A stretch of 64,000 bases of DNA, from the sequence record NC_054919.1; one strand, 5' to 3'. Under the pieces are notes generated by a model. That model was not told the DNA's origin. It made no database searches and saw only the letters and a program-made list of their open reading frames with translations. Shown here in pieces: positions 16,133 to 23,755 of the stretch. Within the stretch, counting starts at the first letter, position 1. Each line of letters starts with the position of its first letter. The translations under genes and the position numbers were made by a program. Source of the DNA: Escherichia phage vB_EcoM_G4507.

Positions 16133-16186
16133 TCCTCATGTTATGTCAGTAAGACTACTATAACACAACACGAGGGACTTGTAAAC
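16133..16186 (-). promoter_or_regulatory. T4-type early promoter plus leader: GTTTAC(-35), 18 nt, TATAGT(-10); copy 1 of a 54-nt repeat
   Basis: Minus strand reads GTTTACAAGTCCCTCGTGTTGTGTTATAGTAGTCTTACTGACATAACATGAGGA then ATG; identical bar 1 nt to 31387-31440. Confidence 0.6.
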
Positions 16187-18243
16187 TACATCTTGAACTT
16201 TTTAGACATTCCGTTGATGTTAACCAAAGAAGCTAAGATTTGAGAAACTTCGTTTTCCTCTTCTTTTGATTCTTCTACAAGGAATTGATTAAATCCAGCC
16301 ATTGGACGAACTTCACCAGTTTCCATTAGATGGTCGCCATCATATACTGATTCTTCTAATTGTTCAGAAGGAGGAACGATTGTACCTTCGATTAGATACT
16401 TGTTATAAGCAGTTTCTTTCATAAAGTAAGTACTTACTTTATTAATCTTCAGTAAAATTCCACGTGGTAGAATAACTTCAGCTTCTGACGGAAATCCTGA
16501 TAAATGACCCGGAACGATAACTTTGATTCGCTCAGCTCCTTTAATTACCATACCCACGCTAGTTTCAGCATCTTCATTAGCATATGTAGAATGACTACCC
16601 ATATGCATCAAATCTTCTGCATCAACGGAACCTTCTCCTTCACCAGAAAATACTGCGCCGGAATCATCTAGAGCCATATAGTTTTTACCATGCTCACCGA
16701 AGATATTTGGTTTAAGCGATGTGGATACGAAGTTCTTGAAATAGAACATTTTATTTTCAATGTTATGACGCAAAGTTTTAAAGGTAACTTCTTGTCCACG
16801 GTAAAGTGTAGTTCCTGGAGGAAGAACTGAACCTTTAGCGAATGCAGAATCAAGCGTCTCAATATGTTTAATAGCTCGTTCCATATATTCTTCACGGGTA
16901 GAATCTGGTTTACCCAAAAGGAACGAGTTCATTTCAACATATGAATCTGCACAATAATCTTCAATTACATCAGATTCAGCTTGAGTTAATCCTTTTGGAG
17001 TTACTTCAGTGCTTGCGTATTCATATGCCTGAGCAGCAGATTCATTAATCAATTTATAAATGCCATTCATGACAAATTGAATAATAGCTGTCTTTTCATC
17101 TGGCGTAGCTTTAGAACCTTTAACCAAATCATTGATAATTTTCTTAATAACATCAAAGCTATTAGAAATATTAATATCAGCAAGATCGCTTAAAATTTTA
17201 TCAGTCTTATAATCAAAGAATTCTTTATTCTTTAAATATTCTTGAGAACCTTGATATGTTATATCGCTCTGTAACTTGATAGATGGATCACGTAAACGTG
17301 CATGGGCTAATGCAATATGATTTCGGAAGCTTTCGAGTTCATAATCACTAGATTTAAAACGAGAAGCGCTTCTCATACCGCCTATAGCTCCTTTGCTGAA
17401 GTTTGAACCAATTTGAATAACGCCAGAGTTCATTGGTCCTTCTGCTTTATACACCGGAACTTTAGATTCAAACTCTTGATATTTCTTAGCAGCGAAGCTA
17501 TCACCCTGAAGTGAAGCATCAACAGTAGAATATTGAGCTTGTGCTGCTAATCGACGACTAATTTTAGTTTTCTGAATAACAGCTTGGTCCGTGCGCTTAT
17601 CATTTTCTAAAGCAATAGAAGCAGCAACAGCAACAGCTTTAGGAACAGCATTACCTGTTTTAACATCTACATAAACATCACCAACCTTTGATTCAACTTT
17701 TGTGAATAACTCAGTTGAAATAGGAGGTACACCTGGAATGTCTTCTAAATTGGCATTTTTACGATAAACCATAATATATGCGTACTTTTTATCATAATCC
17801 CAGATTTCCTTTAAAAGAACATATCGACCTGCTCCTTTAGTACGTACTAAACGGTCAGCAATAACTTGCATTTGACGAGCAGCGCCATTTGTTTTACTCT
17901 TTAGTACGCGGAATAAGCATGCATCAATTTTATACTGTTTCATTGTTTGAAGAGCAGTATCAAAAACAGCGTTAATGACGCCAATTGGATTTCCACCCAA
18001 GTTTCTAAGTTTAACCAGTGATAATTTCTCGTTGACACCTATCATTACGATATGCATCATTTTATCGCCCGGCTTAACGTTTTTATTTGTATCACCTCCA
18101 GAGGTGTATGTACAAAATCTAAATCCAGGAAGCACGCTTTCTTCGCCGGCTTGAATAGCAAAAATTTGAGGTATTTTATGCTTAGGATTTAAGTTAACAA
18201 CCGGCGCCGAAGCGCCGTCAAATAATTCTGTAATAAGTTCCAT
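16186..18243 (-). CDS. Alt-family mono-ADP-ribosyltransferase paralog (685 aa)
   Basis: Shares N-terminus MELITELFD, LCTYTSGGDTN, YKIDAC, QVIADRL, YVLLKE.WDYDKKYAYI with the adjacent Alt; C-terminal R-S-E motifs LYRGQ, FVSTSL, EAEVILPRG. Confidence 0.75.
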   Translation of the reverse strand: MELITELFDGASAPVVNLNPKHKIPQIFAIQAGEESVLPGFRFCTYTSGGDTNKNVKPGDKMMHIVMIGVNEKLSLVKLRNLGGNPIGVINAVFDTALQTMKQYKIDACLFRVLKSKTNGAARQMQVIADRLVRTKGAGRYVLLKEIWDYDKKYAYIMVYRKNANLEDIPGVPPISTELFTKVESKVGDVYVDVKTGNAVPKAVAVAASIALENDKRTDQAVIQKTKISRRLAAQAQYSTVDASLQGDSFAAKKYQEFESKVPVYKAEGPMNSGVIQIGSNFSKGAIGGMRSASRFKSSDYELESFRNHIALAHARLRDPSIKLQSDITYQGSQEYLKNKEFFDYKTDKILSDLADINISNSFDVIKKIINDLVKGSKATPDEKTAIIQFVMNGIYKLINESAAQAYEYASTEVTPKGLTQAESDVIEDYCADSYVEMNSFLLGKPDSTREEYMERAIKHIETLDSAFAKGSVLPPGTTLYRGQEVTFKTLRHNIENKMFYFKNFVSTSLKPNIFGEHGKNYMALDDSGAVFSGEGEGSVDAEDLMHMGSHSTYANEDAETSVGMVIKGAERIKVIVPGHLSGFPSEAEVILPRGILLKINKVSTYFMKETAYNKYLIEGTIVPPSEQLEESVYDGDHLMETGEVRPMAGFNQFLVEESKEEENEVSQILASLVNINGMSKKFKM

Positions 18244-18246
18244 GAT

Positions 18247-20298
18247 TTATCCTTGAACGAACTTGTAAGGCATGTTTGTAATATCTATGCAAGACGCAAT
18301 AATTCCAAGAGATGATTCTACTTTCTGTTTAACATTTGATGAAACAAATGATGCAAAGTCAACTCTATCTTCTATATCACCTGTCATTGTAACTACTTCG
18401 CCGGTTTCCATTAAACGGTCACCGTCATAAATTACTGATTCGGTGAGTTCTTCGGTGGTCATAACTTCAGCTTGAATAAGCTTGTTGTTAGTTTTGACTG
18501 TTCCATCATTGTAAGATGCATCAGTTATTTTATTAACTTTGACCATTAATCCACGTGGCAAAATGACTTCCATTTCATTTGAAGGCGCTAAACTTCCACC
18601 GGGTAAAACAACATTGACTTTATCAGCCCCAGTAATAACCCATCCAATTCCGACTAAATTATCGCTAGAATTAACAAGCCCTTCATCATTTTTATCGATA
18701 GAAATGTTTAGACGCTTTTCATCTGGTAAAACACCAACAGCTGAATCAGTCATCCAAGTACCAAAAATGTTTGGATATAATGATGTTGATACAAAATTTC
18801 TAAAATAAAAAACTCGATTTTTTACCATTGCTTCGTATATTGAAGGTAACATTCGTTGTGAACGATACAAAGTAATACCTTTTGGTAATCGTTCACCATT
18901 TTTAAAGGCTGAATCTAAATTATCAATAGCTTTTTCTATGTCAGATGCTGTCAAAATACTTGTACGCTCATCTGGATTATATAATCCCAAAAGAGCATTA
19001 TTTATGTCTACATATCCTGAACCTACGTATTCACGAATTCCGCGTTTTTGTGCTGGTGTGTATTTAGATGAATCTTTATTTTCGACTATAGGATGTAATG
19101 ACCATCCAGCTGTAAGAGCATATCCACGTAATTCTCTTCGAATAATCTTTGTTTTTATTGCATTCCAAGAATTTTGTACTAACTCATTTGCAGCATCTTG
19201 GTTTAAATGCGAATGTTTGTTAATATTTCTTTCAAACCAAGCACCTTTATATTTTTCTAAAGTATTATCGACGATAGAAGCAATAGTTTCTAAAGTTTTT
19301 ATTGAAGTAATAGATTCTTTTCGTAATTTTTCTAAAGCTTTATTTTTTATTTCTGCATTAATAATGGATTCTTTATCTTCAGGAATTATAGAAGCTTCTC
19401 TGAATGCCATCCCAGCTGTAACACTGCTAAGAGCATTCTCTAGTGCAAATCCTGAAGTAGAAATTACCGTTAATTCATTAGAATCAGAAATTAAAGGCGC
19501 ATCAGCGGGTTTATTTAATTCTGCTGCTGAAGCCTCAAATTTTTGAAACATCGGTGTTTCAAATCTAGAAGATTCCAATGACTGACTTTGTGCAATTGCT
19601 CTACGGGAAATTTTAACTTTAACGATTACAGCTTGGTCAGAACGTTTATCATTTTCTTGTGCAATAGATGCTGCAATTGCCTCATTTTTGGTTACTTGAG
19701 CTCCGGTATCTTTATTGATATAAACATCACCGACCTTCGATTCAACTTTAGTAAAGAGCTCGGTACTAATTTCCGGAACTCCTGGAATGTCTTCTAGTGA
19801 TACATTTTTGCGATGTATAAGAATATATGCATACTTTTTATCATAATCCCAGAGTTCCTTAAGAAGGACGTATCTGCCACCTGAACGACTACGGATAAGT
19901 CTATCAGCAATAACTTGAATTTGTCGAGCTTGACCAGCGGTTTTAGACTTAAGAATACGAAGCATACAGGCATCAATTTTATACTGACGCATTGTTTGCA
20001 TCGCAACAGTAAAAACTGAATTGATATAATTAATTGGGCTTGGACCAAGACCTTTTAATTTAGCAATTGAACCTTTAGCAGTTAATGTAAAAGGAACAAT
20101 ATGCATCATTTTATCGCCCATCTTTAAATCGCGATTAGTATCACCTCCAGATGTATAGGTACATAAACGAAAGCCTGGTTGTTCAATTGCATCATCAACA
20201 TGAACTGAAAAAATTTGCGGTATTTTCTTCTTTGGATTTAAGTTTGTAATCGGAAGAGTAGTATCTTCGTCAAATAATTCTGTAATAAGTTCCATCAT
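18247..20298 (-). CDS. alt: Alt, RNA polymerase ADP-ribosyltransferase (packaged and injected)
   Basis: 683 aa (T4 Alt 682 aa); R-S-ExE motifs LYRSQ, FVSTSL, EMEVILPRG; immediately upstream of DNA ligase as in T4. Confidence 0.85.
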   Translation of the reverse strand: MMELITELFDEDTTLPITNLNPKKKIPQIFSVHVDDAIEQPGFRLCTYTSGGDTNRDLKMGDKMMHIVPFTLTAKGSIAKLKGLGPSPINYINSVFTVAMQTMRQYKIDACMLRILKSKTAGQARQIQVIADRLIRSRSGGRYVLLKELWDYDKKYAYILIHRKNVSLEDIPGVPEISTELFTKVESKVGDVYINKDTGAQVTKNEAIAASIAQENDKRSDQAVIVKVKISRRAIAQSQSLESSRFETPMFQKFEASAAELNKPADAPLISDSNELTVISTSGFALENALSSVTAGMAFREASIIPEDKESIINAEIKNKALEKLRKESITSIKTLETIASIVDNTLEKYKGAWFERNINKHSHLNQDAANELVQNSWNAIKTKIIRRELRGYALTAGWSLHPIVENKDSSKYTPAQKRGIREYVGSGYVDINNALLGLYNPDERTSILTASDIEKAIDNLDSAFKNGERLPKGITLYRSQRMLPSIYEAMVKNRVFYFRNFVSTSLYPNIFGTWMTDSAVGVLPDEKRLNISIDKNDEGLVNSSDNLVGIGWVITGADKVNVVLPGGSLAPSNEMEVILPRGLMVKVNKITDASYNDGTVKTNNKLIQAEVMTTEELTESVIYDGDRLMETGEVVTMTGDIEDRVDFASFVSSNVKQKVESSLGIIASCIDITNMPYKFVQG

Positions 20299-20347: not shown

Positions 20348-20536
20348 TTAATAATCTAGTGGTAAGAGAGTACGGTATATTTCAAACTTTGGACCTTTTT
20401 CATAGGCATCAAATGTTTCTGTGAATTTATTATAAGCATATGCATCTACAAATTCGAGAATGACTTGTGATACAGAAGTAGAAACATCTCCACCTTCTTT
20501 TTGAGCAATGACAATTGTTTCTAAGTAAGCTTTCAT
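20348..20536 (-). CDS. Hypothetical small protein
   Basis: 62-aa ORF overlapping the ligase stop by 4 nt (translational coupling). Confidence 0.5.
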   Translation of the reverse strand: MKAYLETIVIAQKEGGDVSTSVSQVILEFVDAYAYNKFTETFDAYEKGPKFEIYRTLLPLDY

Positions 20537-21996
20537 AAACCAGTTACCTCATGAAAATCACCAAATACATCCTCGAATGTATTAGCTTTAGTTTTATCTT
20601 CACGCAAACGAATCGCAATCGGAAGAAATAATTTAACGTAATCAGTGCGGCCATCAGATTTTAACCAACCGTTGCATTCGCACTCTAGAATTTTTCCAAT
20701 ATAATAATTTTGGTTTTCCATAATGCGAGTACGGTCAAGTTCATGCGATTTTACACCGGCTTTATCTTTTAAGCCTGAACCAGCATTTACTTTAATTTTT
20801 CCACACTCTGACTCAAGAATAAATCCACCTGCTTTAGTAGGGTCTTTACGGTGAGGATAAATTCCTACAATTTTTAAATCAACATCAATTACTTCTTTAA
20901 ATTTATAGAGATTTTTTGAACGAGCATTTTCCCATAATCCATCGATATTTTTGAGAATAATACCTTCAAGACCTTGGTCAATATACTTTTTATAAATTAT
21001 CTTGGCTTCGTCTAGGTTATTTACTACCTGGTTTTCAATTAAAATTACTTTATCATAGCCTGATGTCATTTGTTCTAGTTTAGAAAAACGTACATCATAT
21101 TTCAAACGAAATGCAGGAAGACCGTATATTTCTACCAACGGTACATAATCCCAGACCTGAAACTTCATGCATTGTGCTTCTTTTTCAGAAATGGTTCCCT
21201 TTAAAGATTTATTGGCGATGCCATTAGATGCAGTACGTGATTCAGCTACTTCGGCGAATTCTTTAGCTTTACTGTTTTCAGGATAAGCATCAAAAAGAAA
21301 ATCTAGGCCTTCTGGCTCCTTTTTAACTTGCTCATGATATACCAATTCGCCATCAATTAACACGCCTTCTGGATGAATCTGGCGGGCTTCAGCGGTCATT
21401 TTGATTAATTCTTCCTTAAGAAGATCTAATCCTAGATATTCATTACCAGCTCGTGATAAAAGACGAACGTCATCTAATTCATCACCTCTGACTTCGGCAA
21501 AGCACCGAGCTCCATCAGCTTTTAACTGGGCAAAGGCTGGAAATTTGATATTCTTATTAATGCCTTTTTCATCATAAGAACTTGCAAGCATTTGAGGTTG
21601 TTCAGGAATTAAACCTGGCCAAACTTTGTTCGCAATAGATACTGAAGCGCCACATTCAAGGTCTCGCATCATCACTCGACGCAAAACTTCAACATCATCT
21701 TTTTTACCGTCAGTAATATAACCTACTAATTCCTCAATTGCCGCATTTCCGGTCAATTTTCGAGTAGCTAATGTAAATTCAATGAAGTCAAGCATATCAG
21801 TAATAGTCAGCATTCCAAAACTCTGGGTAGCAATACCAGGTTTAGGCCATTTCTTGATATAATACTGTAACCCACGAGAATAAGTCAGACGATATACTCG
21901 TTTAAGCAATTCATTATCTTTATTCTTTTCAAGAATTGCTTGCTTCTGCTTAGTTGAACCAATAGATGCTATTTCGTTCAGAATTTTAAGAATCAT
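20533..21996 (-). CDS. 30: ATP-dependent DNA ligase gp30
   Basis: 487 aa, same length as T4 ligase; adenylation motif AQLKADGARCF (KxDG). Confidence 0.95.
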   Translation of the reverse strand: MILKILNEIASIGSTKQKQAILEKNKDNELLKRVYRLTYSRGLQYYIKKWPKPGIATQSFGMLTITDMLDFIEFTLATRKLTGNAAIEELVGYITDGKKDDVEVLRRVMMRDLECGASVSIANKVWPGLIPEQPQMLASSYDEKGINKNIKFPAFAQLKADGARCFAEVRGDELDDVRLLSRAGNEYLGLDLLKEELIKMTAEARQIHPEGVLIDGELVYHEQVKKEPEGLDFLFDAYPENSKAKEFAEVAESRTASNGIANKSLKGTISEKEAQCMKFQVWDYVPLVEIYGLPAFRLKYDVRFSKLEQMTSGYDKVILIENQVVNNLDEAKIIYKKYIDQGLEGIILKNIDGLWENARSKNLYKFKEVIDVDLKIVGIYPHRKDPTKAGGFILESECGKIKVNAGSGLKDKAGVKSHELDRTRIMENQNYYIGKILECECNGWLKSDGRTDYVKLFLPIAIRLREDKTKANTFEDVFGDFHEVTGL

Positions 21997-22262
21997 TGTT
22001 CATCCTTTAGAGTTTGGTTTACAGCTCTATTATAAATCAATTCATCATTAAGCTCAGTCAAAGACCTGTGGTACGTTGTTCTAACTTTATTTCCTTGCAT
22101 CCAGTGCTTGACGTAAATGAAACCTTGCTCTACACATTTTTTAAAAATTCGTTCGTCTTTTTGAGCTCGGAATTCTGGATTGCATCTAAAAAATTGATTT
22201 ACGTGACCGTAATCACGTGTAGTATTACCTTCATTTTCATAAATAGTGTGAACAACAAACAT
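21993..22262 (-). CDS. Hypothetical protein (30.1 position)
   Basis: 89-aa ORF coupled to the ligase start. Confidence 0.6.
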   Translation of the reverse strand: MFVVHTIYENEGNTTRDYGHVNQFFRCNPEFRAQKDERIFKKCVEQGFIYVKHWMQGNKVRTTYHRSLTELNDELIYNRAVNQTLKDEQ

Positions 22263-23101
22263 TAGAATGCTCCTTGGAAAATATTATTAGCACCAGTAGG
22301 TCTATTATACAAATACTCTATGCCACCGGGTTTAATATAGTTCCATGTCTGAAACGGATGCGTCTGATATGGATGATATAGATGATTATAAGGATTAAAT
22401 CCAGGAGTTCTCCAGGTAGTGTTCCAAGGAAAAGAATCGTTTTTAATCATCTTTTCAATTACATCTTTTATAGCTTTTTCACTATCAAAACTTTCTTTAT
22501 TTTCCTTCGGTGAAAAAAGCTTATTTTCTACATCATTCCATGTATAAACTCGCTGAGCAGTTTTTGGAATATTGTCACGCTCTCCTCGAGCCATCCAATA
22601 AACAGGAACATTTAATATTTCACTCGCATGATCGCAATGGTGAGCGAGATCGTCAATATAACAAATCACGTTATATTTCTCTTTTGCCTTTTTAAACAAC
22701 TCTTCTTTTGAAGAATCATGACCACACATCAGTACTTCTGAGAAGGCACCAGGAAAAAGAGCGTTCAAATTAAATTGACGATTCAGCAGAGCGTCAATAG
22801 AATCACCCAATGCTGTAACAGCTACAAAATTATAATCTTCTTTTAATTTGTTAATTACACACAGAGCATCTTTATATGGAGACAAGTAACGAATAAAATC
22901 TGAACGATTGTATTTTTCAATTAGCTTGACGCCAAGTTCTTCATCACAATTAAAAAGTTTACCTGGAGAAATAAATTTCTCATCTTGGATCATTTTTAAA
23001 ATATGTTCTAATGGAAGATTATATTTCTGAGCAAAATAAGGAAGACCTGATTGCCAGCTTAAACATACTCCATCAATATCAGTTAAAATAGTAGGCTTCA
23101 T
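22262..23101 (-). CDS. HAD-superfamily hydrolase-like protein (30.2 position)
   Basis: 279 aa; N-terminal ILTDIDGV is HAD motif I (DxDGx); later CYIDD fits motif IV. Confidence 0.65.
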   Translation of the reverse strand: MKPTILTDIDGVCLSWQSGLPYFAQKYNLPLEHILKMIQDEKFISPGKLFNCDEELGVKLIEKYNRSDFIRYLSPYKDALCVINKLKEDYNFVAVTALGDSIDALLNRQFNLNALFPGAFSEVLMCGHDSSKEELFKKAKEKYNVICYIDDLAHHCDHASEILNVPVYWMARGERDNIPKTAQRVYTWNDVENKLFSPKENKESFDSEKAIKDVIEKMIKNDSFPWNTTWRTPGFNPYNHLYHPYQTHPFQTWNYIKPGGIEYLYNRPTGANNIFQGAF

Positions 23102-23562
23102 AGAGAGTCTCTTAATAGGTTTAACACATCAATAAATTCAGCTTCGGTTAGTATTGTATCATCTTTTGTTAGACCACTAGCCATGCTGTGCTTCAAAACT
23201 TTTCCTTTCGAGGCTTGTAATGCATCACGAAAGCCCTTGTTTTGAATCGCTGCTTCAAAATATGCATTTGTGTATAATTCTTTCCACGCCGGGGAGTATC
23301 TTGAAAACGGAACTCCAATCCAGAAGAGGGTCCCACGGTCCTGAGCTCTAGCATAAGACCTTCCAGCTTGTTGGGCGGCAAGCCCGGATAACCCAAATAT
23401 ACGACGTTGTTGTTCAACATTTTTCACCTTACACCCTTGGAGGAATCCTTCAAGACCTCCAAATTGAATACCATCCATAACGAAAGGCCATTGGGCGAAA
23501 TTACTTAATGCGCATGATGGCCATCTAAAATTACTTCTAATCTCTAACTCAGACATTTTCAA
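23098..23562 (-). CDS. NADAR/YbiA-like (DUF1768) protein, putative ADP-ribose or N-glycoside hydrolase (30.3 position)
   Basis: 154 aa; WPSCALSNFAQWPFVMDGIQFGGLEGFLQGCK parallels E. coli YbiA GDFSNFAAWPIKVDGKTWPTSEHYFQAQK (recalled from memory). Confidence 0.55.
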   Translation of the reverse strand: MKMSELEIRSNFRWPSCALSNFAQWPFVMDGIQFGGLEGFLQGCKVKNVEQQRRIFGLSGLAAQQAGRSYARAQDRGTLFWIGVPFSRYSPAWKELYTNAYFEAAIQNKGFRDALQASKGKVLKHSMASGLTKDDTILTEAEFIDVLNLLRDSL

Positions 23563-23755
23563 TGCTTATAATTTCAACATCAGCCCAATGACCATAGCAA
23601 GGAAGACGAAATTCAACTGGCCAGTTAGGGTCCTTTTCTAATATAATAGACTTAACTTGTGGTTCTTCGTGTTCATCAGTATACGGATTTTTATCTGTTA
23701 CTTTATATGTGACCTTAATGTACTGAATTCCAAAAATCTTATTAATTATATTCAT
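23549..23755 (-). CDS. Hypothetical protein
   Basis: 68-aa ORF in a translationally coupled chain. Confidence 0.5.
   Translation of the reverse strand: MNIINKIFGIQYIKVTYKVTDKNPYTDEHEEPQVKSIILEKDPNWPVEFRLPCYGHWADVEIISIENV

Follow-up and report, generated by a model that had tools for sequence, protein, structure and literature searches.

Do two adjacent genes of a T4-like coliphage, lying just upstream of the DNA ligase gene, act together on ADP-ribose adducts? The question arises from the window, the 64,000-nucleotide stretch of Escherichia phage vB_EcoM_G4507 (NC_054919.1) analysed here, in which an initial annotation paired a NADAR/YbiA-like protein with a HAD-like hydrolase. The best explanation of the whole is, very probably, a different one: gene 30.3 is adfN, gene 30.2 encodes a HAD phosphomonoesterase that has the ligase as its partner, and the two do not constitute a two-enzyme ADP-ribose pathway.

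Gene order and coordinates

Over the stretch that holds both open reading frames, the window is 100% identical to Escherichia phage vB_EcoM_G10400, a Tequatrovirus. The region is the T4-like coliphage block 30.4-30.3-30.2-30.1-30 (ligase), and it agrees gene for gene with the T4 annotation (Table 1). Both reading frames exist on the minus strand as first described, and both are real genes, far beyond chance, because the 30.3 product matches Pfam family PF08010 (Phage_30_3) with E=4.5e-70 (234 bits, with the cutoff at 36) and homologs occur in 1509 (gp30.3) and 1438 (gp30.2) phage records. One boundary had to be moved. The start of 30.3 had been placed at TTG 23562, for 154 aa, through an artefact of ORF calling; the T4 annotation puts it two codons further on, at the ATG at 23556, for 152 aa. 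The latter is accepted because of the T4 annotation and because only the 152-aa numbering yields the published E36 and K43.

The genes are tightly packed. Start and stop codons overlap as ATGA at 30.3/30.2, as TAATG at 30.2/30.1, and again as ATGA at 30.1/ligase, a series that fits the translational coupling toward the ligase suggested earlier. A combined promoter and terminator scan found 22 elements against 22.5 expected in shuffled sequence, and is uninformative for T4-type promoters. The two Alt genes are indeed within 3 kb, since they start ∼2 kb downstream. No functional link to Alt emerges from this proximity: Alt modifies proteins, and NADARs act on guanine-ADPr.

Table 1. Genes and sequence features of the 30.4 to ligase region (window coordinates)
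Feature	Coordinates	Strand	Description
Gene 30.4	23549..23755	-	68 aa; phrog_2042 and T4 annotation; stop overlaps 30.3 start
Gene 30.3 = adfN	23098..23556	-	152 aa; NADAR-family DNA ADP-ribosylglycohydrolase (anti-DarT factor NADAR)
Glu36, codon GAA	23449..23451	-	Catalytic; invariant in 41 homologs; aligns to Glu of YbiA SEHYF motif
Lys43, codon AAG	23428..23430	-	Catalytic; invariant in 41 homologs; aligns to YbiA Lys
30.3' internal out-of-frame ORF	23193..23420	-	75 aa; in ORF list; T4 annotation "internal translation, in a different reading frame"
His123, codon CAC	23188..23190	-	Last beta-strand (120-123, AF2 model); invariant in 41 homologs
C-terminal helix, last ∼15 codons of 30.3	23098..23145	-	Helix 138-151 in AF2 model; intact here, full-length alignment with T4
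Gene 30.2	22262..23101	-	279 aa; C1-capped HAD phosphatase (predicted); NT5C-like core, residues 1-200, and disordered C-terminal tail
HAD motif I, Asp8-Ile-Asp10	23072..23080	-	Codons GAT..GAT; D8 and D10 invariant; nucleophile and general acid/base typical of phosphatases
Gene 30.1 (DUF3045)	21993..22262	-	89 aa; Pfam PF11243, E=2.9e-64; between 30.2 and ligase gene
Gene 30, ATP-dependent DNA ligase	20533..21996	-	Pfam PF01068

Gene 30.3 encodes a NADAR-family protein

The product of 30.3 is the same protein, in the same position, as T4 AdfN: the two align over their full length with 150 of 152 residues identical, the sole differences being I80L and M125I. The peptide on which the NADAR assignment was originally built, WPSCALSNFAQWPFVMDGIQFGGLEGFLQGCK, is found in the reading frame, and the YbiA core set beside it was accurate: this very motif is where the true YbiA sequence aligns.

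How far do sequence searches support this assignment? Pfam places gp30.3 in PF08010, a family separate from NADAR (PF08719), and a search of the window protein with the latter gave no match at E<=1 and did not reach the gathering threshold; sub-threshold NADAR matches appear in 20 of 41 family members, with a best E of 3.1e-5. The Pfam check proposed at the outset is negative for the window protein itself. NCBIfam returned nothing for the window gp30.3, and phmmer against the PDB gave a spurious ATP-pyrophosphatase match and no NADAR structure. With a gp30.3 family profile, by contrast, YbiA is the sole match among PDB sequences, and hhalign aligns the two with 85% probability (E=5.7e-6). Since the direct Pfam and phmmer searches do not reach NADAR, membership in the superfamily rests on profiles, structure, and literature.

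The structural evidence points the same way. The AF2 model (pLDDT 92, pTM 0.88) is predicted to have the NADAR fold: its top three Foldseek matches are YbiA (2b3w, E=8.8e-5, TM 0.69), which bears out the expected resemblance, PnNADAR (8bau), and the G. lovleyi NADAR (8bat), the last two with a probability of 0.99. All remaining PDB matches have probabilities below 0.1, which leaves the three NADARs as the only credible ones. As in the NADAR superfamily, an E-x6-K motif (E36, K43) follows an SNF motif, and both residues align with their YbiA counterparts, as anticipated. In T4 AdfN, the E36A and K43A mutations each impair the protein (PMC11825919). The residue of the last strand is Glu in YbiA, Asp in BC4488/DarG1, and a clade-defining His in the phage gp30.3 clade (PMC11125620). 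The C-terminal helix is needed for full AdfN activity; RB69 has lost it by frameshift, and its allele is inactive (PMC11825919). Fold, residues, profile comparison, and the published experiments on the T4 protein together uphold the NADAR call.

AdfN as a counter-defence against DarTG1

What this protein does is known from T4. Genetics, mutants, in vitro DNA de-ADP-ribosylation, the RB69 truncation, and the anti-DarTG1 counter-defence have all been described (Johannesman et al., Nat Commun 2025, PMC11825919), and T4 gp30.3 acts in vitro as a guanine-ADPr DNA glycohydrolase that is specific for guanine-ADPr and hydrolyzes the guanine-N2-ADP-ribose linkage (PMC11825919, PMC11125620). In the corresponding mechanism, the DarT1 toxin of DarTG1 ADP-ribosylates guanines in the phage DNA and thereby blocks replication. 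AdfN, as a stand-alone NADAR-fold N-glycosidase, cleaves the guanine-ADP-ribose bond by means of Glu36, Lys43, and the clade-specific His123, and removal of the ADP-ribose restores the DNA and allows the phage to replicate. Judged from its sequence, the window copy should have the same activity and phenotype, because it is 99% identical to T4 and retains E36, K43, H123, and the C-terminal helix. That a phage NADAR reverses DNA ADP-ribosylation is true, yet already published and tested for T4 AdfN; to this the window adds one more near-identical allele.

Comparison with other NADARs is instructive. The DarG1-type antitoxin of the DarT1-NADAR system (G. lovleyi, 8bat) resembles gp30.3 in its NADAR fold and, according to the literature, in its guanine-ADPr DNA chemistry. 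In contrast to it, gp30.3 has no adjacent DarT toxin, its neighbors being 30.4 and 30.2, and a PADLOC search of 30.1-30.4 gave no match; for these two reasons it can be regarded as an orphan antitoxin-like gene. It also lacks the N-terminal extension, carries His rather than Asp in the last strand, and, in experiments with the T4 protein reported in the literature, was unable to replace DarG1 in uninfected cells. E. coli YbiA (Pfam NADAR PF08719), a riboflavin-intermediate N-glycosidase, is the best structural match and has the SNFA...E-x6-K motif in common with gp30.3, but the identity is only ∼17%, a Glu takes the place of His123, and the biological role is different.

Gene 30.2 probably encodes a HAD phosphatase of deoxyribonucleotidase type

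For the neighboring gene, the HAD call has likewise proved sound. The motif I sequence ILTDIDGV is confirmed in gp30.2, some form of motif I occurs in 218 of 242 family members, and gp30.2 has all four HAD motifs: across 42 homologs D8, D10, and K132 are invariant, and T96, D150, and D151 are conserved in at least 90%. The structure model is confident, with a Rossmannoid HAD core and a helical C1 cap whose helices lie between motifs I and II. At the level of fold and motifs, gp30.2 is thus modelled as a C1-capped HAD phosphatase.

The profile searches are less direct. For the window protein, the Pfam HAD, Hydrolase, and HAD_2 models gave no match, so that the intended Pfam confirmation failed, and matches below threshold were seen in 11 of 42 relatives; NT5C (PF06941) likewise gave no match, with sub-threshold matches in 6 of the 42. 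One family member, P0300, scores 38.4 bits with NT5C against a cutoff of 24.8, and the link of NT5C to the window protein is transitive only; most relatives, like the window protein, fall below every Pfam HAD and NT5C cutoff. A phmmer search of gp30.2 against the PDB gave noise.

The best PDB matches by sequence and structure appear to be cdN (2jao), mdN (1mh9), and the S. epidermidis protein 3bwv. These enzymes of the NT5C family have, like gp30.2, a HAD core topped by a helical C1 cap and a DxDGV motif followed by aromatic-[EQ]-S-G-L, which is W-Q-S-G-L in gp30.2 and F-E-S-G-L in cdN. They differ in that identity is 15-21%, the Pfam scores of gp30.2 are below cutoff, and gp30.2 has a tail of ∼80 extra disordered residues with a conserved GIEYLxxxPT motif. 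On this basis gp30.2, with its helical C1 cap, would be a HAD phosphomonoesterase that depends on Mg2+, and its substrate would most likely be a (deoxy)nucleoside monophosphate or a similar small phosphoester, because its closest similarity appears to be to 5'(3')-deoxyribonucleotidases.

No published function of gp30.2 was found, a literature search on 30.1, 30.2, and 30.3 together returned nothing relevant, and phage deoxyribonucleotidases appear there as genome annotations only. The assignment of T4 gene 30.2 by structure and family, as a capped HAD phosphatase of deoxyribonucleotidase type, can be of modest use. Phage T5 Dmp, a deoxynucleoside-5'-monophosphatase, is a phage-encoded dNMP phosphatase and a possible functional analogue; as a relative of gp30.2 it was rejected (hhalign 1.5%, homology undetectable beyond motif I, and no Pfam match).

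Are 30.3 and 30.2 a pair?

If the two genes worked together, they might be expected to travel together. Among 79 viral loci with gp30.2, a ligase gene lies downstream in 74, within 600 nt in 67 of them, while gp30.3 is near in 36. Seen from the other side, gp30.2 is found within 6 kb at 20 of 80 gp30.3 loci, and at the other 60 no homolog of it lies within that distance. The adjacency is retained across Tequatrovirus-like and Acinetobacter T4-like phages, and when the same-strand neighbors within 2.5 kb of gp30.3 were clustered, no partner was conserved beyond the T4-like subset. The stable evolutionary partner of gp30.2 is the DNA ligase gene, not AdfN, and an ADP-ribose-processing 30.3-30.2 pair is not supported. 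Of the original proposal, the role of 30.3 in DNA counter-defence stands, as published for T4 AdfN; the joint work with 30.2 finds no support. The most fitting reading of the adjacency in T4-type phages is a gene order specific to that lineage, within a densely packed early/middle operon. As a separate observation, the 30.2-ligase adjacency could merely mirror conserved Straboviridae gene order.

Competing explanations

Could each protein have another role? For gp30.3, it is very unlikely that the main targets are soluble ADP-ribose derivatives or RNA-repair by-products, or that the protein is a YbiA-like riboflavin-intermediate N-glycosidase, with DNA de-ADP-ribosylation as a side activity. 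A 2022 survey from the Aravind lab made the case that the preferred substrates of phage NADARs are low-molecular-weight ADPr derivatives, and pointed to RNA-repair links (PMC9503650), and distant gp30.3 homologs lie within tRNA clusters at 17 of 60 loci, or beside an RNA ligase; the tRNA-cluster context is weak evidence, because accessory genes of all kinds tend to gather in such clusters. YbiA is the closest solved structure by Foldseek, but the gp30.3 clade is nearest the DarG1-type NADARs and differs from YbiA at the last-strand His. Against the soluble-substrate role, the T4 genetics and biochemistry directly show removal of guanine-ADPr from DNA and the DarTG1 phenotype. As for gp30.2, its conserved downstream neighbor and a weak PHROG match to polynucleotide kinase (phrog_415, E=0.0027) would suit a DNA-end 3'-phosphatase that readies nicks for the adjacent ligase, an end-healing and sealing arrangement like that of T4 Pnkp and RNA ligase, rather than a mononucleotidase. 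This role is unlikely: a HAD with a C1 cap typically accepts small substrates only and Pnkp-type phosphatases have no cap, NT5C-type enzymes outrank Pnkp in every search, the residues after motif I fit cdN, and T4 already has the PseT 3'-phosphatase.

A further question is whether gp30.2 could be the T-even factor that AdfN needs for full activity in vivo, for instance by binding, stabilizing, or localizing AdfN, or by clearing a by-product of ADP-ribose removal that carries a phosphate. AdfN is reported to be fully effective only during Tevenvirinae infection, for which a helper phage factor has been proposed (PMC11825919), and RB69, which AdfN supplied in trans can rescue (PMC11825919), encodes its own 30.2. 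The genes abut with an ATGA overlap, their adjacency is held in both groups of T4-like phages named above, and the gp30.3 gene of KVP40-like Vibrio phages lies directly beside that of another protein, a canonical NT5C, which makes an independent NADAR-NT5C juxtaposition; this juxtaposition and the overlap give some room for a functional link. However, purified AdfN is active in vitro without gp30.2 (PMC11825919, PMC11125620), the NADAR reaction releases ADP-ribose and leaves no phosphomonoester for a HAD phosphatase, and the published genetics are equally well fitted by any of ∼100 uncharacterized T-even genes. Across loci gp30.2 follows the ligase and is missing near most gp30.3 genes, and a sensitive search for NT5C-like proteins near gp30.3 (jackhmmer with the short Vibrio NT5C against all fetched loci) added only phage K567, whose locus lies outside the set of 80. 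Such a functional pair is accordingly quite improbable. The more specific version, in which gp30.2 is a Tevenvirinae-specific AdfN helper, acting through its conserved disordered tail or by clearing a by-product, and NADAR-NT5C pairs have arisen twice (T4-type and KVP40-type), must be considered very improbable indeed.

The Vibrio arrangement differs in its details from the ligase-linked one. In the KVP40-like phages (phi-pp2 peg.69; K567 VPHK567_0105), the deoxyribonucleotidase-family HAD directly downstream of the gp30.3 NADAR is a canonical NT5C of 162-168 aa that scores above the Pfam cutoff and is related to gp30.2 only distantly (hhalign 86%), and the next genes downstream are gp47/46 rather than the ligase.

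Gene Order

The region is highly conserved: Escherichia phage vB_EcoM_G10400 is 100% identical to it across 1.9 kb, and hundreds of Tequatrovirus genomes share 95-99% identity with it. In the T4 annotation, the same genes follow one another in the same order from 30.4 to the Alt region. Start and stop codons overlap at each junction from 30.4 through alt.1, as ATGA or TAATG, and therefore the remark in the initial annotation that these genes are translationally coupled is reasonable; the peptides it quoted are likewise found in the window.

Genes and smaller features of the 30.4-to-Alt block (positions in the window)
Feature	Position	Strand	Place
30.4	23549-23755	-	first of block
30.3	23098-23556	-	after 30.4
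30.3' (75-aa ORF)	23193-23420	-	within 30.3, out of frame
30.2	22262-23101	-	after 30.3
gp30.2 tail (residues ~200-279)	22262-22500	-	within 30.2
30.1	21993-22262	-	after 30.2
DNA ligase gp30	20533-21996	-	after 30.1
alt.1		-	between DNA ligase gp30 and Alt
Alt	18247-20298	-	after alt.1
Second Alt paralog	16186-18243	-	after Alt

Both Alt ADP-ribosyltransferase paralogs are intact and, by eye, keep the R / S-T-S / E-x-E motifs. The 683-aa copy is the ortholog of T4 Alt (98%). Its 685-aa paralog shares 42% identity with it and lies at a site where T4 has just the decayed duplicates alt.-1, alt.-2, and alt.-3. A 2022 survey from the Aravind lab described T4-like NADARs as early genes encoded beside ADP-ribosyltransferases (PMC9503650). 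Nothing was found in support of a link between genes 30.3 and 30.2 and these nearby enzymes.

gp30.3, a Phage NADAR

The NADAR function of gp30.3 is not new, as it is established by experiment on the T4 protein. Earlier bioinformatic work had T4 gp30.3 among phage NADARs, and in vitro the protein removes ADP-ribose from guanine, not from thymine (PMC11125620). It was renamed AdfN on the basis of genetics, being necessary and sufficient for the resistance of T-even phages to DarTG1; E36A, K43A, and C-terminal truncation each impair it, and the sensitivity of RB69 stems from a natural frameshift allele of its AdfN gene (PMC11825919). The idea of a NADAR protein countering DarT, which the initial annotation derived from raw sequence, was right, yet already published.

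Two substitutions, I80L and M125I, separate the window protein from T4 gp30.3. The earlier length of 154 aa arose from the TTG at 23562, chosen by a mechanical ORF list; the ATG annotated in T4 lies two codons further, at 23556, and gives 152 aa, the only count that fits the literature numbering of E36 and K43.

Does the window copy carry the NADAR fold? It matches Pfam PF08010 (Phage_30_3) with E=4.5e-70. Searched directly, it has no match to Pfam NADAR (PF08719), and phmmer against the PDB matched none of the NADAR structures. The NADAR profile matches 20 of the 41 family members below its threshold. The sole PDB match of a 15-sequence gp30.3 profile is E. coli YbiA (E=0.046), over the very YbiA motif cited in the initial annotation, and hhalign of the 41-sequence alignment against YbiA (85% probability, E=5.7e-6) pairs E36 and K43 with its Glu and Lys. 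AlphaFold2 gives a confident model (pLDDT 92, pTM 0.88), for which the three NADARs of solved structure are the sole credible PDB matches: YbiA (2b3w; E=8.8e-5, TM 0.69/0.63), the Phytophthora enzyme with ADP-ribose (8bau), and that of Geobacter lovleyi (8bat), with probability 0.99 each. The remaining matches fall below 0.1. E36, K43, and H123, which is located in the last strand of the model, do not vary in 41 homologs, and the C-terminal helix is intact. Fold, profile matches, and invariant residues thus confirm the NADAR reading.

gp30.2, a Predicted Nucleotidase

gp30.2 is 97% identical to its T4 counterpart. A literature search for the term "gp30.2" found no paper with it, Pfam and NCBIfam gave no family match, and its PHROG (420) is annotated "unknown function". 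The HAD reading of this 279-aa ORF holds: the four motifs (D8-x-D10, T96, K132, and D150-D151) are kept in 42 diverse homologs, and in the AF2 model, confident over residues 1-200, helices inserted between motifs I and II form a C1 cap. The best PDB match of the family profile is mouse 5'(3')-deoxyribonucleotidase (2jao, E=0.044), in an alignment spanning motif I and the next segment (W-Q-S-G-L in gp30.2, F-E-S-G-L in 2jao). The same cdN tops the Foldseek search with the model (E=1e-8), where 3bwv and mdN entries also rank high. Sub-threshold Pfam matches among the 42 relatives are to Hydrolase (11) and NT5C (6); one (P0300) of the 1406 representative clusters from an exhaustive profile search, mainly 190-225 aa long, exceeds the NT5C gathering threshold. 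With good confidence, gp30.2 is predicted to be a capped HAD phosphomonoesterase, and with moderate confidence one of the NT5C (mononucleotidase) type.

Residues 200-279 of the model are mainly of low confidence (pLDDT mostly <60). This tail of ~80 residues, with many aromatic residues, Pro, and Asn, is predicted to be largely disordered, its sole predicted helix being at residues 205-221. The tail motif G-I-E-Y-L-x3-P-T, present in 14 of 60 long-form homologs and 0 of 182 short forms, may be a docking peptide for some partner. A few much longer metagenome members of the family (P0286, 591 aa; P0341, 660 aa; P0238, 430 aa; P0276, 365 aa) have the HAD domain at the C- or N-terminus and extra regions with no Pfam match; they may be fusion proteins, and as such might give a clue to function.

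Do gp30.3 and gp30.2 Form a Pair?

Homologs of gp30.3 and gp30.2 occur in 1509 and 1438 phage records, with near-identical genus distributions. Both genes are near-core in Straboviridae, so their co-occurrence in genomes says little and neighborhoods say more. Around gp30.3, a gp30.2 homolog lies within 6 kb in 20 of 80 IMG/VR loci, abutting in 14; the other 60 have none within that distance, and 17 of them have a tRNA within 1 kb. In individual phages, gp30.3 also neighbors gp46/47, an RNA ligase, or nrdAB, and clustering of all neighbors gave no partner conserved outside the T4-like subset. Around gp30.2, a DNA-ligase gene flanks in 74 of 79 loci, always on the same strand, within 600 nt in 67, and downstream except in three (L164-L166), where it is upstream; gp30.3 is present in 36 of the 79, abutting in 22. 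Judged from these neighborhoods, gp30.3 acts like a mobile module of one gene, fitting an "orphan antitoxin", and gp30.2 belongs with the ligase. Both fold assignments of the initial annotation stand, but its proposal that the two proteins act as a pair on ADP-ribose adducts is not supported. Gene order in Straboviridae is inherited by descent, so the adjacency of 30.2 and ligase is no proof of functional coupling.

A counter-observation comes from KVP40-like Vibrio phages, where gp30.3 abuts another, canonical NT5C protein (Pfam, 42.9 bits), only a distant relative of gp30.2. This second, independent NADAR-NT5C juxtaposition occurs in that lineage alone among the loci examined; there, NT5C is followed by gp47/gp46, whereas in the window gp30.2 is followed by 30.1 and DNA ligase. 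In Vibrio phages K567 (L005:4001-4959) and phi-pp2 (peg.68-69), gp30.3 overlaps the start of the gene for this 162-168 aa deoxyribonucleotidase.

Proposed Roles

DarT1 puts ADP-ribose on guanines of phage DNA, and AdfN hydrolyzes the guanine-ADP-ribose adducts, as published experiments show for T4 and as is expected of the window copy because of its 99% identity. That gp30.3 mainly acts on soluble ADPr derivatives or RNA-repair products seems very doubtful. gp30.2 would be a separate small-molecule phosphatase in DNA or nucleotide metabolism, probably acting on (d)NMPs. Could it instead serve the ligase as a nick 3'-phosphatase? Its cap and its NT5C affinities both disfavor this role, which is unlikely. 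AdfN has no effect in uninfected cells or for T5/Bas25 (PMC11825919). That gp30.2 is a T-even factor potentiating it is a reading to which we give little credence. What is new here is solely the annotation-level assignment of gp30.2 and its linkage to the ligase.

Other Observations

In many phages not of the T4 type, the gp30.3 homolog sits inside large tRNA clusters, with up to 25 tRNAs per 12 kb (loci L035, L038, L047, L050, L066, L069, L075, L079, L083-L085, and others), and one Brevundimonas jumbo phage has it ~350 nt upstream of an RNA ligase; L003 and L007 are grouped with these contexts. In the methods of PMC11125620, the "T4 phage NADAR (gp30.3)" construct is given as residues 1-208, a mismatch with the 152 aa of T4 gp30.3 that tags or another accession may explain. 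The 75-aa ORF within gene 30.3 is the 30.3' annotated in T4 ("internal translation in a different reading frame"). Thirteen T4-like loci share this ORF, which nucleotide conservation alone may explain.
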